Assembly (NCBI GenBank): GCA_028718185.1
Contig: JAQUMH010000002.1
Location: 4,088-68,087 of the forward strand
Reading direction: 5' to 3'
DNA from: Elusimicrobiota bacterium
GTDB taxonomy: Bacteria; Elusimicrobiota; UBA8919
Length of the DNA: 64,000 nt
Below, piece after piece: positions 50,448-58,787 of this stretch (position 1 is the stretch's first letter; every line of letters begins with the position of its first letter). Both the position numbers and the translations under genes were made by a program. The notes under the pieces are model-generated. The model saw only the letters and a program-made list of their open reading frames with translations, was not told the origin of the DNA and did no database searches.

Positions 50448-52292
50448 CTATTTTATTAATTTCCCCTTTGCTATTTCAAGATACTTTTTTGCTTCACTGT
50501 TATTTGGATTATTTTTAATTACAGTTTGTAATTCAACAATAACTTTCTTCCAATCGCTTTTTTGCCAATATAAAATTGCGAGCTCATAATGTACATCTGT
50601 ATAATTTGGATTTAAACGTAAAGCCTCTTTGAATTCTTTTATTGCAGCATCAGTGTTGTTAACGCGGGGGAACATTCTGCCTAGATTAAAATGAATATCA
50701 GCATTATTTGTCATATCATAAACAAATATAGAATACCCTATTTTATCTACAGGTTCGTATTTTTTTAACCAATCGAAAGCATGAATATCACCTAAATATA
50801 AACCTTGCAGATAAGTGGCACTTACAGCTAAAAGATTCTGTCCCTTTTTATTTACATAATCAACTTCCGGAGAACAGACAGGCGTTAGTATATGCTGTCC
50901 CTTTAGTCCATAGTACATTGAGTCACCTTGTCCAAAATAACACTCTACTAAATTTGCCGGTTTTACTTTATCAATATATTTTTTAAGACCCTTTAAATCC
51001 TGCCCCCAGTCAAGATTTGATTCTACAACATATTTCCACCCGTTCTTTGGTCCGCCGATAAACTCATTAAAATATGCCAGATGATGAGGGAATATACGTA
51101 CAGCCGAATAAAGATACCACAGACAAAGAAATAACACTGCCATTTTTTTTACTATCTTGCTATTTGCATTAACTGCGTTAAAAACATTAACCACACTTCC
51201 TGCCAATACAAAAAGGAACGGGTAAACAGGCAGTATATATCTTAATCCTAATTGTGTTTGACTTTTAGATGCACTAACAAAAAATATAAATGCCGGAAGA
51301 AAAACAAATATTTCATCATTATTCCACAAGCATTTCATATGCTTGTGGCTTATTTTTATCAAACTCCAAAACAACAATATTATAAATGGAACCGGCGTTT
51401 TTATTAAAAATGCTATTATAAAATAATACCACCAACCGCCTGACGAATAGCTTCCCATTAGAAAATTAGGATTTCCTGCTTCTTTTGTTTTAACAATTAT
51501 AGATGAAAAAACGATACTTATTCCTTTAAAATATGAACCTATACCTGTCACCCTGTAGGATAATAAAATAACACAACATGCAATAATAACAGAACTTATC
51601 AATCTCCACCATTTTTTGTTTAATTTATTATATTCAAAACCTGCTAAAAGCATAAATACAGGAACAAGCACTATACTCGAGACTTTTGATACCTGAGCCA
51701 AACCAAAACAAAACCCTACTAATAAAGCATTTAACCAAGTTTGTTTTTTAGAAAATTTCCAGAAAAAATATACACTTAAAAATATAAAAACCGTTACCCC
51801 AAAATCCGTTGTTGCAATTCCAGAATGCGATATAATGTCAGCTGAGAAAGAATAAAGAAATAATGTCAATAACCCCGCCTTCACCCCATATAACCGGCTT
51901 GAAAATTTGAAAACAAAAAAACCCAGCAAAAGAGCCAGAATAAATATCGGTATTCTGCCAAGAAAAAGTATTTTATCAGCACTTGTTGTATTTTCATATA
52001 GGAACTTTTTTCCGTAAGCAAATAGTTCTCCGGCATTGTCTTTTAAATTTTCCGGAGGAAGAGGCGGAAGTTTTAATTTAAGCGGTAATAGAAAACTTGC
52101 AGATAACATTCTCAAAAAAGGCGGATTATTCGGTGCAAAACTAAAATCCCCTGTTTTTAAATTATAATACCCTACAGCTAAATAATGCGGTTCGTCATAA
52201 ACCGGGCATTTCGTCCATGGACCAAATGCAACCTGGAGTCCAAAAACAATAAAAAGAAACATAATAATCAGCAATTCAATCTTTCTATTCAT
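50448..52292 (-). CDS. GT-C fold membrane glycosyltransferase (PMT_2 / ArnT-like, GT83/GT39-type) fused to C-terminal TPR repeats
   Basis: 614 aa. DEPHY motif in the first periplasmic loop, followed by a PPF.. segment. About 11 TM helices. The C-terminal about 110 aa form TPRs (NLGRMF...AILYWQKSDWKKVIVELQTVIKNNPNN) homologous to the TPR tails of the three downstream DUF2723 genes. Confidence 0.55.
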   Translation of the reverse strand: MNRKIELLIIMFLFIVFGLQVAFGPWTKCPVYDEPHYLAVGYYNLKTGDFSFAPNNPPFLRMLSASFLLPLKLKLPPLPPENLKDNAGELFAYGKKFLYENTTSADKILFLGRIPIFILALLLGFFVFKFSSRLYGVKAGLLTLFLYSFSADIISHSGIATTDFGVTVFIFLSVYFFWKFSKKQTWLNALLVGFCFGLAQVSKVSSIVLVPVFMLLAGFEYNKLNKKWWRLISSVIIACCVILLSYRVTGIGSYFKGISIVFSSIIVKTKEAGNPNFLMGSYSSGGWWYYFIIAFLIKTPVPFIILLFWSLIKISHKHMKCLWNNDEIFVFLPAFIFFVSASKSQTQLGLRYILPVYPFLFVLAGSVVNVFNAVNANSKIVKKMAVLFLCLWYLYSAVRIFPHHLAYFNEFIGGPKNGWKYVVESNLDWGQDLKGLKKYIDKVKPANLVECYFGQGDSMYYGLKGQHILTPVCSPEVDYVNKKGQNLLAVSATYLQGLYLGDIHAFDWLKKYEPVDKIGYSIFVYDMTNNADIHFNLGRMFPRVNNTDAAIKEFKEALRLNPNYTDVHYELAILYWQKSDWKKVIVELQTVIKNNPNNSEAKKYLEIAKGKLIK

Positions 52293-52300
52293 ATATTAAG

Positions 52301-56529: not shown

Positions 56530-58787
56530 TTTTTTAGTATTGCCAGATACTTTTTTGCTTCGGAATGAGCAGGATTAAGCTGTAATACAGTTTCAAATTC
56601 TTCAACAACACCTTTCCAGTATTTTATTTTCCAATAAGCAACACCCAGATTATAGTGTGCATCAACATAATAGTATTTTAGCGATATTGCTTTTTTATAT
56701 TCGGATAATGCTGCTTCATTTTGATTTGTCTTCTCATACAAAACACCAAGATAACAATGCGGTTCCGCAAGCTCCGGACTTGCTTCCGAAGATTTCATAT
56801 AATCGTCTTTTGCTTCTTCATATTTATTTATTTGGAATTTTTCATACCCCCTTGTCAAATAAATAAATGCAAGATTATTCCTGATGTTTTCATCGTAGGG
56901 ATTTATTTCAATACCTTTTCTATATCTTACAATTGCCTCTTCAATAAATCCTTTTTCTTTGAGTGAAATTCCGATATTATTATAAACCCATTCTACATCT
57001 CCGCCGTTTTGTCCGGCTTTATCATATTCTTTTAACATTTCATCATTTTTCTTGTCTTTATAATATTTTTCAGCAAGAAAATAGTGGTATTGCGAAGAAA
57101 CATCTCTCAAAAGGTATTCACTTAAATAATTTTTATTATCTATACCACGAGTTACATATACCTGCCACAAATCATAATTAACGTTCAGCGGTTTTGCTTT
57201 ATATATTATTCCTGAAATATCAGATTTGACATCCCTTAAATTTGAAAAACTACTACCTAACGAAAAACATATAGGTCTTGCTTGTTTTAATAGTTCTCTT
57301 TGAACATACTCCCTTCTTTCCTGCTTTTGTTCTTTTGTAAGTTGAAAGAAATCATCACCATAAACATTCTTAAATAAAAGTCCGGTATCGGTATAAAAAG
57401 AAACATCTAACCGTTTTTTTAGGCACCATTGCTGGTAAGACAGAAGAAACATCTGATTATCACCTGAAGAGAAAAAATGTGAATTTTTGGGAAGAGACTT
57501 TATAATATTTGAAGAATAATCATATGCTACAAAATTATTTCTTTTGCTATTATAATTAAAATTCATAATGACAGGTAAAATCAAAAGGCAGGAAAATAAA
57601 GAAAGTTTTAAATATTCAGAAGGTTCCCCCCTAGTTTTGTCTAACGATAAAACTGGCAGGGGGGTACTTTTTTTGAATTTATTAAAGGTAAAAATGCGAA
57701 AAAAGTAAAAAAAGCCAATCCCTAGCCAAATAGCCATAACGGTATAGGCAGGTAGATAATAAACTTCTACAACGGATGTTTGCTGCGGATTGAATTGAAA
57801 TCTTAAAATAAAGATTAGACCTAAACCGTTTAATAAAAATAATCCTACAGTAAGAATACATATTTTTTTACACGATTTATAAAATTTTATTAAACCAAAC
57901 AATACAAAAGGTAACATATAATATGTGAATTGTTCACCTGCAAGTTTAAAATAATGTTTTATAAACAACAACTTTGTCGAAAATGTAACTTTTTGTCCGA
58001 ATTCATATGATTTATATTGAACACGCCTGATATGTGCTATAAAATTATGCAATGTTCCTGTATTTCCCTGATTCATTAGAGGATTTTCCAAAGACCGGAC
58101 AGGCATAGATACCAGAATCGTCAAAGCCAGCAATATAAAAAATATACAAATAATAATATTAGCAAAAGGTTTATTTTTCCCAAAGAGATTCTTCCAGTAA
58201 AAAACTAAAAATGCAATTAGCAATAATCCGGAAATATAATGTCCTGCTATGCTTAATCCCGCAATAAAAGAAAACAAATAAATATTTTTATTTTTCAATA
58301 CTGATATATAGATAAGTAATACAATAAAAAACGAAGTTAGGGTATATATACCGCCTTTAGCTATAACACTTTGCGACCAGAAAGTTTTAGAAAAAGCTAA
58401 AAATAACGCAGGAAGACAGGCGAATAAGAAAGTGGGATTGTGGGATTGTGGGATTGTGGGATAGCGGAATAGCGAAGCAGAAGATGAGGAGATAAGCTGT
58501 TTCATAACCAAATACACAATTCCGCATGTTAATGCGCCGAAAACGGCGCTCATTATGTTTAATCTATATGCAATATTTCCGTAAGGTATTATGAATGTAA
58601 ATATTTTTCCAAGCAATACATACAATGGATACCCGGGCGGATGAGTAATACCCAAAGTATATGCCGCAGTTGCAAATTCTCCGCTATCACCCACATAAAC
58701 TGTAGGGCATAATGTTATTAGATATATCCCTAATGATAATAAATACACTAAAATCATTGCAGACCGCTTCTCCTTCGTAAAAACCAT
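56526..58787 (-). CDS. DUF2723 + TPR membrane glycosyltransferase-like protein; paralog 3
   Basis: 753 aa. VYVGDSGEFATAAYTLGITHPPGYPLYVLLGKIF. Three perfect gggattgtg units at 58432-58475 (PTIPQSHNPT). C-terminal TPRs. Confidence 0.55.
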   Translation of the reverse strand: MVFTKEKRSAMILVYLLSLGIYLITLCPTVYVGDSGEFATAAYTLGITHPPGYPLYVLLGKIFTFIIPYGNIAYRLNIMSAVFGALTCGIVYLVMKQLISSSSASLFRYPTIPQSHNPTFLFACLPALFLAFSKTFWSQSVIAKGGIYTLTSFFIVLLIYISVLKNKNIYLFSFIAGLSIAGHYISGLLLIAFLVFYWKNLFGKNKPFANIIICIFFILLALTILVSMPVRSLENPLMNQGNTGTLHNFIAHIRRVQYKSYEFGQKVTFSTKLLFIKHYFKLAGEQFTYYMLPFVLFGLIKFYKSCKKICILTVGLFLLNGLGLIFILRFQFNPQQTSVVEVYYLPAYTVMAIWLGIGFFYFFRIFTFNKFKKSTPLPVLSLDKTRGEPSEYLKLSLFSCLLILPVIMNFNYNSKRNNFVAYDYSSNIIKSLPKNSHFFSSGDNQMFLLSYQQWCLKKRLDVSFYTDTGLLFKNVYGDDFFQLTKEQKQERREYVQRELLKQARPICFSLGSSFSNLRDVKSDISGIIYKAKPLNVNYDLWQVYVTRGIDNKNYLSEYLLRDVSSQYHYFLAEKYYKDKKNDEMLKEYDKAGQNGGDVEWVYNNIGISLKEKGFIEEAIVRYRKGIEINPYDENIRNNLAFIYLTRGYEKFQINKYEEAKDDYMKSSEASPELAEPHCYLGVLYEKTNQNEAALSEYKKAISLKYYYVDAHYNLGVAYWKIKYWKGVVEEFETVLQLNPAHSEAKKYLAILKK

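Follow-up and report, generated by a model that had tools for sequence, protein, structure and literature searches.

Gene organization

Four adjacent genes for membrane glycosyltransferases (GTs) in the window (the whole 64,000-nucleotide stretch of Elusimicrobiota DNA analyzed) raise the question of which molecules these enzymes glycosylate. All four ORFs were confirmed on the minus strand, namely G1 (56526..58757), G2 (54565..56529; 654 aa), G3 (52388..54568; 726 aa), and G4 (50448..52292; 614 aa). The longest ORF of G1 begins at 58787 (58787..56526), but translation more likely starts at 58757 (743 aa), where the deposited annotation (P0015) also places it; the gene upstream of G1 then overlaps it in an ATGA. 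Such 4-nt start/stop overlaps occur at the GATase1-like/G1, G1/G2, and G2/G3 junctions, so the overlaps described in the initial annotation hold for the first three GT genes but not for G3 and G4, which are separated by 95 nt foldable as a nested hairpin. Another 34 nt separate G4 from the next gene (DUF4175).

Family, fold, and catalytic residues

In Pfam, G1, G2, and G3 match the TMEM260-like family PF11028 (1e-32, 1e-34, and 3e-33, respectively; cutoff of 24 bits) and G4 matches PMT_2 (PF13231, E = 8e-11), in agreement with the earlier assignment of three DUF2723-family paralogs and one PMT_2 protein. With phmmer, G2 matches human TMEM260 (PDB 9rql) at 5e-26, and the first 92 aligned residues include 41 identities (ca. 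45%, counted by hand on the HMMER match line). The human enzyme is a protein O-mannosyltransferase for the IPT domains of plexins, cMET, and RON (PDB 9rql; PMC10214176). The equivalents of its essential residues D52, H67, and R264 and of its catalytic base, D441, are kept in G1, G2, and G3 and in 32/32 operon-encoded paralogs, and they are at least 95% conserved among 74 homologs (73 of 74 for D441). The first-loop motif had been given with Asp or Tyr at its acidic position, but this residue is Asp in all three paralogs, and the Tyr reflects a misalignment, as G3 reads Y-R-D-A-G-E. Differences from the human enzyme were found at R355, which is not conserved in the window enzymes (Val or Pro; Pro in G3), and at Y267, which is conserved in G1 and G2 and is His in G3. 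The window enzymes also differ in being bacterial and in lying as three paralogs in one operon, and their lipid-linked donor has to be built on a bacterial polyprenol. We conclude that G1, G2, and G3 truly belong to the TMEM260 family, whose bacterial enzymes had been called essentially uncharacterized, a description that agrees with the literature searched, where the name DUF2723 came up in a single paper.

The conservation of these residues bears on whether the proteins are enzymes at all. They could be GT-C relics serving as noncatalytic, membrane-anchored TPR adaptors in place of the BatB/BatC/BatE-type TPR proteins, as TPR proteins are typical in Bat operons (PMC5700661) and we found sub-threshold NCBIfam matches to the TPRs of Leptospira BatC. 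However, loss of the catalytic Asp/Glu was looked for and the catalytic residues proved intact, every catalytic or donor-binding residue tested is conserved in all paralogs over deep divergence, and the N-terminal donor site is the best-conserved part of the protein, which makes a purely scaffolding role highly improbable.

The AlphaFold model of G2 (pLDDT of 90.1, pTM of 0.91) comprises a membrane core, a five-stranded alpha/beta domain (residues 432 to 543), and five TPR helices (residues 566 to 653). In Foldseek it matched ArnT, PglB, and STT3 at a probability of 1.00, and the G4 model (pLDDT of 93.3) matched ArnT, ALG12, PglB, and Pmt4 at the same probability, in support of the GT-C fold initially proposed for the array. 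ArnT was the top match of both models, which could point to a nonprotein acceptor (lipid A, glycolipid, peptidoglycan, or polysaccharide), as in ArnT, Emb/Aft, and GtrC-type enzymes, with the TPRs docking on the Bat-like complex. Bat operons ordinarily include TPR proteins (PMC5700661), and the fourth gene, which differs among related loci, gives some further support to this idea, being an MGDG-synthase-like glycolipid GT in locus L005 and, in L131, a UDP-sugar pyrophosphorylase (UDPGP) gene lying between the TMEM260-like paralogs. However, no TMEM260 entry came back from the PDB library used with Foldseek (entries released up to 8 April 2026), which makes the rank of ArnT uninformative on the acceptor type. 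Furthermore, the equivalent of D441, the residue by which human TMEM260 activates the hydroxyl of the peptide, is kept almost throughout the family, and the G2 model retains the peptide-binding Rossmann-like plus TPR architecture. We therefore regard a nonprotein acceptor as improbable.

G4 is homologous to the DUF2723 family in profile-profile comparison (8.6e-34), and its residues D33-E34, R113, and R351 are invariant. It shares the PMT_2 domain and the GT-C fold with ArnT and with bacterial PMT/GT39-annotated enzymes (actinobacterial Pmt and Caldicellulosiruptor bescii Cbes_1864 [PMC6151902], the latter likened to G4 by description). The invariant Asp-Glu pair in its first loop is that of the bacterial PMT/ArnT group, and its best structural matches are ArnT and Pmt4. 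As no Pfam match to the MIR domain or PMT_4TMC was found in G4, it is not a canonical PMT.

TPR domains and topology

The C-terminal TPR matches in Pfam are significant in all four proteins, which have in common the signature ...YW..K.W..V..E.E.VL..NP... and are identical at 29 to 36 of their last 72 residues in every pair. The TPR Asn-ladder positions are mostly retained in the operon paralogs, and G1 and G3 carry extra TPRs relative to human TMEM260. The cryo-EM structure of the human enzyme consists of 11 transmembrane helices, a Rossmann-like domain, and a five-helix TPR, and this TPR by itself binds the acceptor peptide (preprint 10.64898/2026.03.17.711096). Besides PF11028, G1 to G3 have in common with it the GT-C core, the extracytoplasmic Rossmann-like domain, and the TPR. 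Since the G2 model shows the same layout, the TPR of G1 to G3 is an ancestral family trait; the claim that all four enzymes are fused to the same TPR module was right in that the domains are homologous, but no special fusion has to be assumed for these three. Only in G4, where the TPR (five helices) follows a small alpha/beta domain, is its presence variable, as the corresponding genes of L001 and L003 encode none. Homology and the G2 model place the TPR, after the Rossmann-like domain and an 11-helix-type membrane core, on the predicted extracytoplasmic side and not in the cytoplasm.

A precedent for a bacterial GT-C enzyme with a periplasmic TPR acting on a protein is Pseudomonas aeruginosa TfpW, likened to G1 to G4 by description. 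This inner-membrane protein with 11 predicted transmembrane helices is involved in pilin D-arabinofuranosylation, and its loop 1 and C-terminal TPR domain were placed in the periplasm experimentally (preprint 10.1101/2020.04.19.049825). It differs in belonging to another GT-C family (Emb-like, with a DDX motif) and in being a single gene next to that of its substrate, pilA. TMTC1-4 are eukaryotic GT-C plus TPR O-mannosyltransferases for cadherins, with full-length prokaryotic homologs that were noted and are uncharacterized (PMC7801869), and they resemble G4 in having an N-terminal GT-C followed by lumenal or extracytoplasmic TPRs. In contrast to TMTC1-4, G4 has no DUF1736 match and only the short TPR described above, which is not even constant among its counterparts.

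Genomic context

The array is directly flanked by a GATase1-like gene (58754..60808, minus strand; 684 aa; PF07090 and YtkA/MG2 matches), whose stop overlaps the G1 start, and by the DUF4175 gene (47192..50413, minus strand; 1,073 aa; PF13779, 4e-26), the final gene of the conserved block. Farther upstream, on the same strand, are genes for a DUF4159 protein (61354..62148; PF13709, 3e-36) with an N-terminal membrane anchor indicated by its N-terminal sequence and for a BatA-type VWA membrane protein (62145..64000; VWA_2 at 1e-17 and DUF58 matches), which is cut by the window end, its reading frame being open up to 63998. The VWA counterparts in L001, L003, and L005 are BatA plus VWA proteins of 643 to 670 aa with DUF58 upstream (and also MoxR in L001 and L003), and the MoxR and DUF58 genes are therefore expected beyond the window end. 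From hydropathy, the GATase1-like protein has a hydrophobic anchor at each end and a large middle domain, and DUF4175 has three N-terminal hydrophobic segments and a 906-aa tail predicted to be periplasmic (also from its charge distribution); N-terminal anchors and large tails are thus common to DUF4175, DUF4159, and the GATase1-like protein.

Known Bat/MoxR-VWA operons (Bacteroides fragilis BatA-E; Borrelia BB0170-BB0176, PMC5700661; Leptospira, PMC3557215) likewise contain MoxR, DUF58, BatA-type VWA, and TPR components, and the Borrelia BatA-type protein BB0173 was reported to have a topology that would let its VWA domain face the periplasm (PMC5700661). The Elusimicrobiota version adds DUF4159, GATase1-like, and DUF4175 proteins and two or three TMEM260-like GT-C genes; such GT genes are unmentioned in the published accounts of Bat operons compared.

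At ten other distinct loci (L001/L002, L003, L005, L007, L014, L023, L130, L131, L132, and L133), mostly labeled Elusimicrobiota and within the MoxR/DUF58/BatA/DUF4159 operon context, the GATase1-like...DUF4175 bracket encloses two or three TMEM260-like genes, and a partial locus (L026) has three DUF2723 ORFs adjoining DUF4175. Conversely, no Bat-operon genes were found within 10 kb at ca. 65 DUF2723 loci of other contexts and phyla. Other DUF2723 paralogs are solitary, some of them in the same genomes, so the family is not intrinsically bound to this operon. In a neighbor-joining tree, the operon paralogs form three position-specific clades in fixed gene order, p1 (G1), p2 (G2), and p3 (G3). 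Orthologs are 56 to 73% identical and paralogs 26 to 36% identical over their middle and C-terminal parts; over the first 105 residues, where the sugar-recognition motif sits, paralog identity is 50 to 80%. Judging by their sequences, the three paralogs are ancient. The DUF4175 gene of L129 directly follows the GATase1-like gene, with no GT gene, and L133 lacks p2, so the Bat-like proteins are able to exist without the full GT set.

The initial annotation had placed the array beside the locus of a giant surface protein. This is not the case, as the 4,192-aa ORF (20398..32976) is 17.5 kb away and ca. 14 ORFs of at least 120 aa intervene, of which those matched in Pfam seem unrelated and housekeeping-type (PilT-like ATPases, a cNMP/GAF regulator, a PolyA_pol-family nucleotidyltransferase, DUF2851, a cyclophilin, and CpXC). 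A system dedicated to this Ser/Thr-rich protein and to the 1,074-aa propeller protein had as its sole basis their presence in the same 64-kb window. A broader version would be general O-glycosylation of surface proteins, these two included, with the position in the Bat-like operon reflecting envelope coregulation only. Both proteins are ca. 20% Ser plus Thr and look like exported cargo, with FlgD_ig/CHU_C-type domains and a PorV-like neighbor; a Poribacteria locus has two DUF2723-TPR genes between 1,540-aa and 1,242-aa fn3/Ig proteins; secreted cellulases of C. bescii need a GT39-annotated enzyme for their glycosylation (PMC6151902); and the Bat-like proteins of L129 do without GTs. Weighing against it, besides the distance, the genes annotated up to 10 kb from the GT module in six related loci include none for a giant protein, and what the lineages conserve is the GATase1-like...DUF4175 bracket with its ATGA coupling. 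We consider this alternative unlikely, although it deserves more credit than a nonprotein acceptor. The GT genes are a conserved part of the Elusimicrobia MoxR/BatA/DUF4175 envelope operon, and a partnership with the giant protein is not supported.

Proposed function

Our preferred reading, to which we would give a probability of about 0.55, is that G1 to G3 are periplasmic protein O-hexosyltransferases in the Bat-like operon that use one donor type and act on different acceptors, which would be the Bat-like proteins or their clients, with G4 as an accessory. The four GT genes form a module built into the MoxR-DUF58-BatA(VWA)-DUF4159-GATase1-like-DUF4175 envelope operon of Elusimicrobiota, and their translation is coupled to that of membrane proteins from the operon itself. 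The inner-membrane GT-C core of G1 to G3 would bind a polyprenyl-phosphate-hexose donor, the periplasmic Rossmann-like domain would supply the catalytic Asp, and the TPR domain would then grip the extended acceptor peptide, each enzyme putting one hexose on Ser/Thr as polypeptides emerge into the periplasm. As the N-terminal donor parts are alike and the periplasmic acceptor halves have diverged, the three enzymes probably share the donor type, each of the three acting on an acceptor of its own. G4 would be an accessory PMT_2-type GT-C that is swapped, moved, or missing in other lineages.

By homology, the donor hexose is most likely mannose. The mannosylation suggested earlier is likewise inferred from homology, and the UDPGP gene of L131 hints at a UDP-sugar-derived donor, e.g., glucose instead of mannose. 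Clade p3, which always has His at human Y267 and Ala or Pro at R355, may use another sugar, as these two altered residues are sugar contacting. The window ORFs that were compared with Pfam include no polyprenyl-phosphate-sugar synthase. As to the acceptors, translational coupling and a position conserved over deep divergence make the coencoded proteins or MoxR/VWA clients the likeliest candidates, and the sites would lie in the large periplasmic domains of BatA, DUF4159, the GATase1-like protein, or DUF4175 or in clients of the MoxR/VWA complex. The human IPT-domain sequon, even its core, was not found in any window protein.

Tandem repeats

In-frame 7- and 8-nt arrays occupy one cytoplasmic loop of G1, G2, and G3 alike (all on the minus strand). 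The TM2-TM3 loop of G1 contains a perfect array of 3.9 copies of AATCCCAC (58432..58462), that of G2 contains octamer arrays that are first AATCCCAC-like and then of the CCGCTTTC type (56152..56242; disordered in the AlphaFold model, with a pLDDT of <50 at residues 97 to 109), and that of G3 contains 8.6 copies of AATCCC[AG]C (54213..54283). G2 also has a heptamer array of the GTTACTC type (3.9 copies, 56014..56040), with a counterpart in G3 (54055-54080), and TRF detected heptamer arrays at the 5' end of the DUF4159 gene (62029-62059 and 62100-62133). The in-frame loop arrays could be phase-variation switches. The G3-G4 spacer (52293..52387, minus strand) contains three CACGAAT heptamers followed by four ATTCGTG heptamers, which together make up the nested hairpin; it holds 7 of the 12 ATTCGTG copies of the window and folds at -32.3 kcal/mol (z = -4.6).

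Organization of the array

The window comes from a 301-kb contig of an Elusimicrobia metagenome-assembled genome. The initial annotation described four tandem membrane glycosyltransferases with a common C-terminal TPR module at 50448-58787, and ORF calls and Pfam searches agree: four long minus-strand ORFs, G1 (58787..56526), G2 (56529..54565), G3 (54568..52388), and G4 (52292..50448), have strong TPR matches at the C terminus. Their last 72 residues share 29 to 36 identities in every pair and carry a distinctive capping-TPR signature common to all four, which, together with the ORFs and the Pfam matches, confirms a TPR-bearing glycosyltransferase array. 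Upstream on the same strand, 60808..58754 encodes a GATase1-like membrane protein and 62148..61354 a DUF4159 protein; the frame of a VWA gene beyond them continues past the window end. A DUF4175 gene (50413..47192) follows G4.

G1 more likely starts at 58757 (743 amino acids, as deposited) than at 58787, and with this start it overlaps the upstream gene by an ATGA. The 4-nt overlaps proposed for the whole array are present at G1/G2 and G2/G3 (both ATGA) but not at G3/G4, where a 95-nt spacer separates the genes.

Family, fold, and catalytic residues of G1 to G3

TMEM260 was recognized as a protein O-mannosyltransferase in 2023. Its structure and catalytic base were described in a 2026 report (preprint 10.64898/2026.03.17.711096), in which cryo-EM of the human enzyme revealed 11 membrane helices, a lumenal Rossmann-like domain, and a five-helix TPR that suffices to bind the acceptor peptide. 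According to the same preprint, D52, H67, R264, Y267, and the catalytic base D441 are essential, and loss of R355 lowers activity. G1, G2, and G3 match the corresponding family, PF11028 (TMEM260-like, formerly DUF2723), with 113.6, 120.2, and 115.4 bits (cutoff 24.2; E values of 1e-32 to 1e-34), and in HMMER G2 aligns to the human TMEM260 chain (PDB 9rql) at an E value of 5e-26.

With 74 homologs as input, AlphaFold modeled G2 confidently (pLDDT 90.1, pTM 0.91); the model contains about 11 long membrane helices, followed by a five-stranded alpha/beta domain at residues 432 to 543 and five TPR helices at 566 to 653. Foldseek searches of this model against PDB entries with release dates through 8 April 2026 returned ArnT, PglB, and STT3 with a probability of 1.00 and TM-scores of 0.41 to 0.56; no TMEM260 entry was among the matches, so the link to TMEM260 rests on sequence and on the published description.

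In the HMMER alignment, G2 residues D24, H39, R276, Y279, and D456 correspond to human D52, H67, R264, Y267, and D441. The equivalents of D52 and H67, which belong to the sugar-recognition motif, are kept in G1 to G3 and, like that of R264, in all 32 of the operon-encoded paralogs examined, while the catalytic base is Asp in 73/74 homologs and again in 32/32 operon paralogs. The two remaining positions are less uniform: the Y267 equivalent is Tyr in G1 and G2 and His in G3, and that of R355 is Val or Pro in the three window enzymes. The first-loop motif had been read as beginning with Asp or Tyr; the Tyr alternative can be dropped, as Asp is found in all three proteins, with G3 reading Y-R-D-A-G-E.

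The enzymology proposed for these genes was thus largely right as to family, fold, and catalytic residues. Built like human TMEM260 and with the acidic catalytic residues present in the alignments, G1 to G3 look active, and their TPRs are predicted to be periplasmic, rather than cytoplasmic, from the model and from homology to the solved structure. P. aeruginosa TfpW provides an experimental bacterial precedent for a GT-C enzyme with a periplasmic TPR (preprint 10.1101/2020.04.19.049825). What does not stand for G1 to G3 is the idea of a TPR fusion, as a C-terminal TPR belongs to the ancestral layout of the family and is not a new addition. G1 to G3 share most of the features that define membership with TMEM260; conservation of the donor-contact residues is partial, and the human acceptor sequon is absent from the window ORFs searched for it.

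A full-database search with TPR-less G2 retrieved 12,914 cluster representatives at an E value of ≤1e-3 and 5,932 at ≤1e-10 (clusters at 50% identity). The searchable literature contains no characterized bacterial DUF2723/TMEM260 relative, and the single paper there that mentions DUF2723 says just that TMEM260 has "distant homologs in bacteria." The bacterial relatives are therefore a large uncharacterized family. The enzyme family itself is known from humans; in this locus it takes the form of a conserved module of three paralogs within a bacterial envelope operon.

Three paralog clades

In a neighbor-joining tree of the operon-encoded paralogs from 11 loci, calculated with the conserved N terminus left out, the proteins fall into three clades (p1, p2, and p3) that match gene position and contain G1, G2, and G3, respectively. 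Among the window and the related loci L001 and L003, orthologs are 56 to 73% identical and paralogs 26 to 36% identical in their middle and C-terminal (acceptor-binding) parts; over the first 105 residues, where the sugar-recognition motif is located, paralog identity rises to 50 to 80%. Clade p3 always has His in place of Y267 and Ala or Pro in place of R355. Clades p1 and p2 keep the Tyr and, in the deeper lineages outside the sublineage of the window, also the Arg. The three paralogs are old and specialized, and the simplest reading of these sequences is that p1 and p2 would use one donor type, that p3 would have a modified sugar pocket, and that the three would differ in acceptor specificity.

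In several close p2 orthologs of G2 (P0005 to P0012, 523 to 567 amino acids), the protein stops at the end of the Rossmann-like domain and gives no TPR match, so in this clade the TPR is dispensable or has been lost in some genomes.

The conserved 5' part shows signs of exchange between paralogs. In locus L007 (10138-14035), p2 and p3 do not differ over at least 66 residues surrounding a tandem repeat array, and in L003 the p1 and p3 loops are near-identical (7881-14193); such stretches in anciently diverged paralogs point to gene conversion. Recent conversion of large tracts among G1, G2, and G3 was considered and rejected, as their 5' DNA identity is just 70 to 73%, and the longest exact matches between them are octamer repeat tracts.

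Outside Elusimicrobiota, a 21-kb Armatimonadota locus (L024) has seven ORFs that match the DUF2723 N-terminal profile and may represent a larger TMEM260-like tandem array or fragmented genes.

The PMT_2-type gene

G4 matches PF13231 (PMT_2) with 42.9 bits (cutoff 26.1; E value of 8e-11). D33-E34 of its first extracytoplasmic loop is invariant among 64 homologs, and the invariant family residues R113 and R351 are likewise kept. In the AlphaFold model (pLDDT 93.3), the membrane core is followed by a small alpha/beta domain and five TPR helices; Foldseek matches of this model include ArnT (1e-7), Pmt4 (1e-5), ALG12, and PglB. The G4 and DUF2723 families are homologous over their entire length (hhalign E value of 8.6e-34).

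Pfam searches at an E value of ≤0.01 found no MIR or PMT_4TMC match in G4. Judged by its sequence, G4 is thus PMT_2-like without canonical PMT features: it has the PMT_2 core of enzymes annotated as GT39 but lacks their MIR domain. With the TMTC enzymes (GT105) it has only the layout of GT-C plus TPR in common, as DUF1736, for which Pfam gave no match in any of G1 to G4, is missing.

The G4 counterparts in L001 and L003 have 543 to 547 amino acids and no TPR, and forms with and without TPR are both present among the closest homologs. The TPR is a variable feature of this protein, and the PMT_2 gene an optional extra of the module. The best non-self matches of the G4 TPR are DUF2723 proteins (43 to 46% identity, versus 34 to 39% for its own family), which weakly favors, without being decisive, a copy from a neighboring paralog.

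Genomic context

The part of the operon within the window comprises the VWA gene, truncated by the window end, and the DUF4159, GATase1-like, and DUF4175 genes. In related loci these are preceded by MoxR-DUF58-BatA in constant order, and Bacteroides, Borrelia, and Leptospira have Bat (aerotolerance)/MoxR-VWA operons with a similar frame. L001/L002 and L003 have the order MoxR-DUF58-BatA-DUF4159-GATase1-like-[3x TMEM260-like]-PMT_2-DUF4175, and L007, L014, and L023 are arranged as in the window. The fourth gene varies: an MGDG-synthase-like glycosyltransferase replaces PMT_2 in the otherwise L001-type order of L005 (Endomicrobiia), a PMT_2-like gene (L130) or a UDP-sugar pyrophosphorylase (UDPGP) gene (L131) is located between paralogs 2 and 3, and L132 lacks a fourth gene. 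L133 has two paralogs only, the second of which belongs to p3. In L129 the operon is present with zero glycosyltransferase genes, DUF4175 directly following the GATase1-like gene.

For comparison, we scanned one genome per species for DUF2723 genes and retained the best 79 loci, which came from Firestonebacteria, Nitrospirota, Hydrogenedentota, Armatimonadota, Planctomycetota, the candidate phyla radiation, Bacteroidota, Spirochaetia, Proteobacteria, and others. Among these 79, Bat-like genes within 10 kb are found only at the loci described here, mostly labeled Elusimicrobiota. The related loci and this survey together indicate that two to three TMEM260-like genes inside the GATase1-like/DUF4175 bracket are a lineage-specific conserved trait. 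PADLOC gave zero matches, so no catalogued defense system is present, and NCBIfam gave sub-threshold TPR matches alone, with none for the neighboring genes.

Several small elements accompany the operon. A 100-amino-acid GIY-YIG ORF (61251..60949) separates the DUF4159 and GATase1-like genes (interval 60809-61353) and is flanked by copies of AGCGAAGCAATCTC, with one inverted copy after its stop codon. It looks like a small mobile insertion, because in L001, L003, and L005 a 4-nt overlap joins the two host genes. The G3-G4 spacer (52293-52387, extending to 52396) holds 7 of the 12 ATTCGTG/CACGAAT copies in the window, three forward and then four inverted, which form a nested hairpin (-32.3 kcal/mol, z = -4.6). 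The equivalent junction in L001 and L003 is a 4-nt overlap, and the hairpin might serve as an operator or a processing site or else represent a small inserted element. The conserved gene block ends at a strong, GC-rich stem-loop of 11 bp with no coding-strand T-run (47141-47165), directly after the DUF4175 stop codon.

Possible acceptors

The array had been tentatively linked to a giant surface protein and a propeller protein encoded in the same stretch, a dedication that we find unsupported. The 4,192-amino-acid ORF (20398..32976) is 17.5 kb away, and between it and the array are genes for CpXC, cyclophilin, and DUF2851 proteins, two PilT-like ATPases, a cNMP/GAF regulator, and a PolyA_pol-family nucleotidyltransferase, as well as further ORFs without informative matches. 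Because placement in the Bat-like operon is conserved in related loci, this operon and not the giant protein is the context of the array, and the substrate link to the latter should be replaced by one to the operon.

The giant protein (CBM_4_9, fn3, FlgD_ig, Big_13, and CHU_C matches) belongs to a cluster at 20398-38510 that also encodes a 396-amino-acid ORF without matches, a PorV-like protein, and a 1,074-amino-acid protein with PD40/FlgD_ig matches. This arrangement in an Elusimicrobia genome suggests cargo in the style of type IX secretion, accompanied by a PorV-like shuttle.

With the family, fold, conserved catalytic residues, translational coupling, and operon position of G1 to G3 established, we consider it slightly better than even (a probability of about 0.55) that they are operon-linked periplasmic protein O-hexosyltransferases. 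The identity of the enzymes is the firm part of this reading and is highly probable; the assignment of acceptors is tentative and falls somewhat short of even odds. A polyprenyl-phosphate-hexose would be made in the cytoplasm and flipped, and on the periplasmic side of the membrane G1 to G3 would then attach the hexose to Ser/Thr in extended polypeptides gripped by the TPR and Rossmann-like domains. By homology the sugar would be mannose, and the UDPGP gene of L131 leaves room for glucose or another UDP-derived sugar. The acceptors would most likely be the large extracytoplasmic parts of the co-encoded DUF4175, DUF4159, GATase1-like, and BatA-type VWA proteins, or else clients of the MoxR/VWA machinery. 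DUF4175 has three N-terminal hydrophobic segments and then a 906-amino-acid tail, and the topology reported for a Borrelia BatA-type VWA homolog is compatible with a periplasm-facing VWA domain (PMC5700661).

Some observations count against this reading. L129 and L133 indicate that Bat-like proteins are able to exist without the full glycosyltransferase set, and none of the window ORFs scanned against Pfam is a Dpm1/GtrB-like donor synthase; the scan shows just a GT4 and a UDPGP gene, about 40 kb away. The human IPT sequon (P-x5-P-x3-G-P-x2-[GA]-G-G-x2-[TS]), whether in full, as a core, or as loosened cores, is absent from the window minus-strand ORFs of at least 100 amino acids, so the acceptors must belong to another class than those of the human enzyme.

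A general O-glycosylation system for surface proteins, the giant one included, is doubtful. Its specific support is the composition of the giant and neighboring surface proteins, together with a Poribacteria locus (L006, 865-17034) in which two DUF2723-TPR genes are located between fn3/Ig-type proteins of 1,540 and 1,242 amino acids, and where large surface proteins are plausible acceptors. We regard a nonprotein acceptor as still less probable: ArnT is the best structural match, and glycolipid or sugar-activation genes occupy the variable slot, yet the peptide-activating Asp and the TPR/Rossmann-like architecture are conserved. That the TPR proteins have a purely structural role is very improbable given the complete conservation of the catalytic residues.

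In this locus, bacterial enzymes that retain the catalytic residues have a concrete genomic partner, the MoxR/BatA/DUF4175 operon, which makes bacterial DUF2723 substrates and the function of Bat-like operons testable together. The list of candidates is short and comprises four membrane proteins encoded in the operon, three paralogs whose acceptor domains differ, and one paralog clade with an apparently altered sugar pocket. The locus is also relevant to the bacterial ancestry of a glycosylation pathway of the eukaryotic ER.

Tandem repeat arrays

G1, G2, and G3 carry octamer arrays, (AATCCCAC)n, at the same place (about nucleotides 270 to 390), in the loop between transmembrane helices 2 and 3, which is predicted to be cytoplasmic and is disordered in the G2 model. 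The G1 array (58432-58462, minus strand) has 3.9 perfect copies of the 8-nt unit; those of G2 and G3 are at 56152-56242 and 54213-54283, and heptamer arrays are found at 56014-56040 and 54055-54080 in the same two genes, all on the minus strand. The 14-nt double unit has 14 matches versus 0.54 expected and in the window is confined to these arrays. Similar arrays occur in the 5' ends of DUF4159 genes, including that of the window (62029-62059 and 62100-62133, minus strand), and in a PorV-like gene; window arrays outside the glycosyltransferase and DUF4159 genes are at 35124-35151 and 1006-1072.

The L001 and L003 orthologs lack this octamer, and in other genomes the same loop contains different arrays with units of 7 or 8 nt. 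In L007 (8248-8319, 10461-10509, and 12160-12208), all three paralogs have (AGTCCGA)n followed by (ACATTGG)n, a composite that recurs on the opposite strand inside the window DUF4159 gene, and in L003 (8144-8192 and 12330-12375) p1 and p3 have (GGACAGA)n followed by (TACGCTC)n. The array (ACTTACTC)3 is found in L011 (2344-2367), which is a solitary DUF2723 gene from the genome of L007. The arrays have in-frame units of 7 or 8 nt in three to six, often perfect, copies, and the unit varies between genomes and is common to the paralogs within one genome. Of 26 such arrays in 12 loci (289 kb), 17 are located in DUF2723 genes.

With units of 7 or 8 nt, slippage would shift the reading frame, and a glycosyltransferase gene with such repeats in its 5' part has the classical anatomy of a contingency locus. 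The arrays in the TMEM260-like loops and the DUF4159 5' end are thus candidate slipped-strand phase switches, although from the sequences we consider this function unlikely. If it were true, each glycosyltransferase could switch between on and off states on its own, so that an uncultured phylum would show combinatorial phase variation in the glycosylation of its envelope proteins. The arrays, which resemble cyanobacterial STRR repeats, would in that case form a mobile class of STRR-like repeats that gene conversion has spread.

The window locus is represented by one assembly, and a metagenome scan for the 24-mer (AATCCCAC)x3 found 43 unrelated loci of very different GC content, none of them coding for DUF2723 or Bat-like proteins and none a variant of the window locus. 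In three low-GC contigs from one study (L086, 583-614; L114, 6958-6989; L117, 14856-14927), (AATCCCAC)n abuts the palindrome GATCGCGCCGCGGCGCGATC, and the adjoining ORF, judged by eye, resembles a Y1-transposase/RAYT. Two of the samples have 4 to 5 copies and the third has at least 9, so arrays of this type vary in length in nature.
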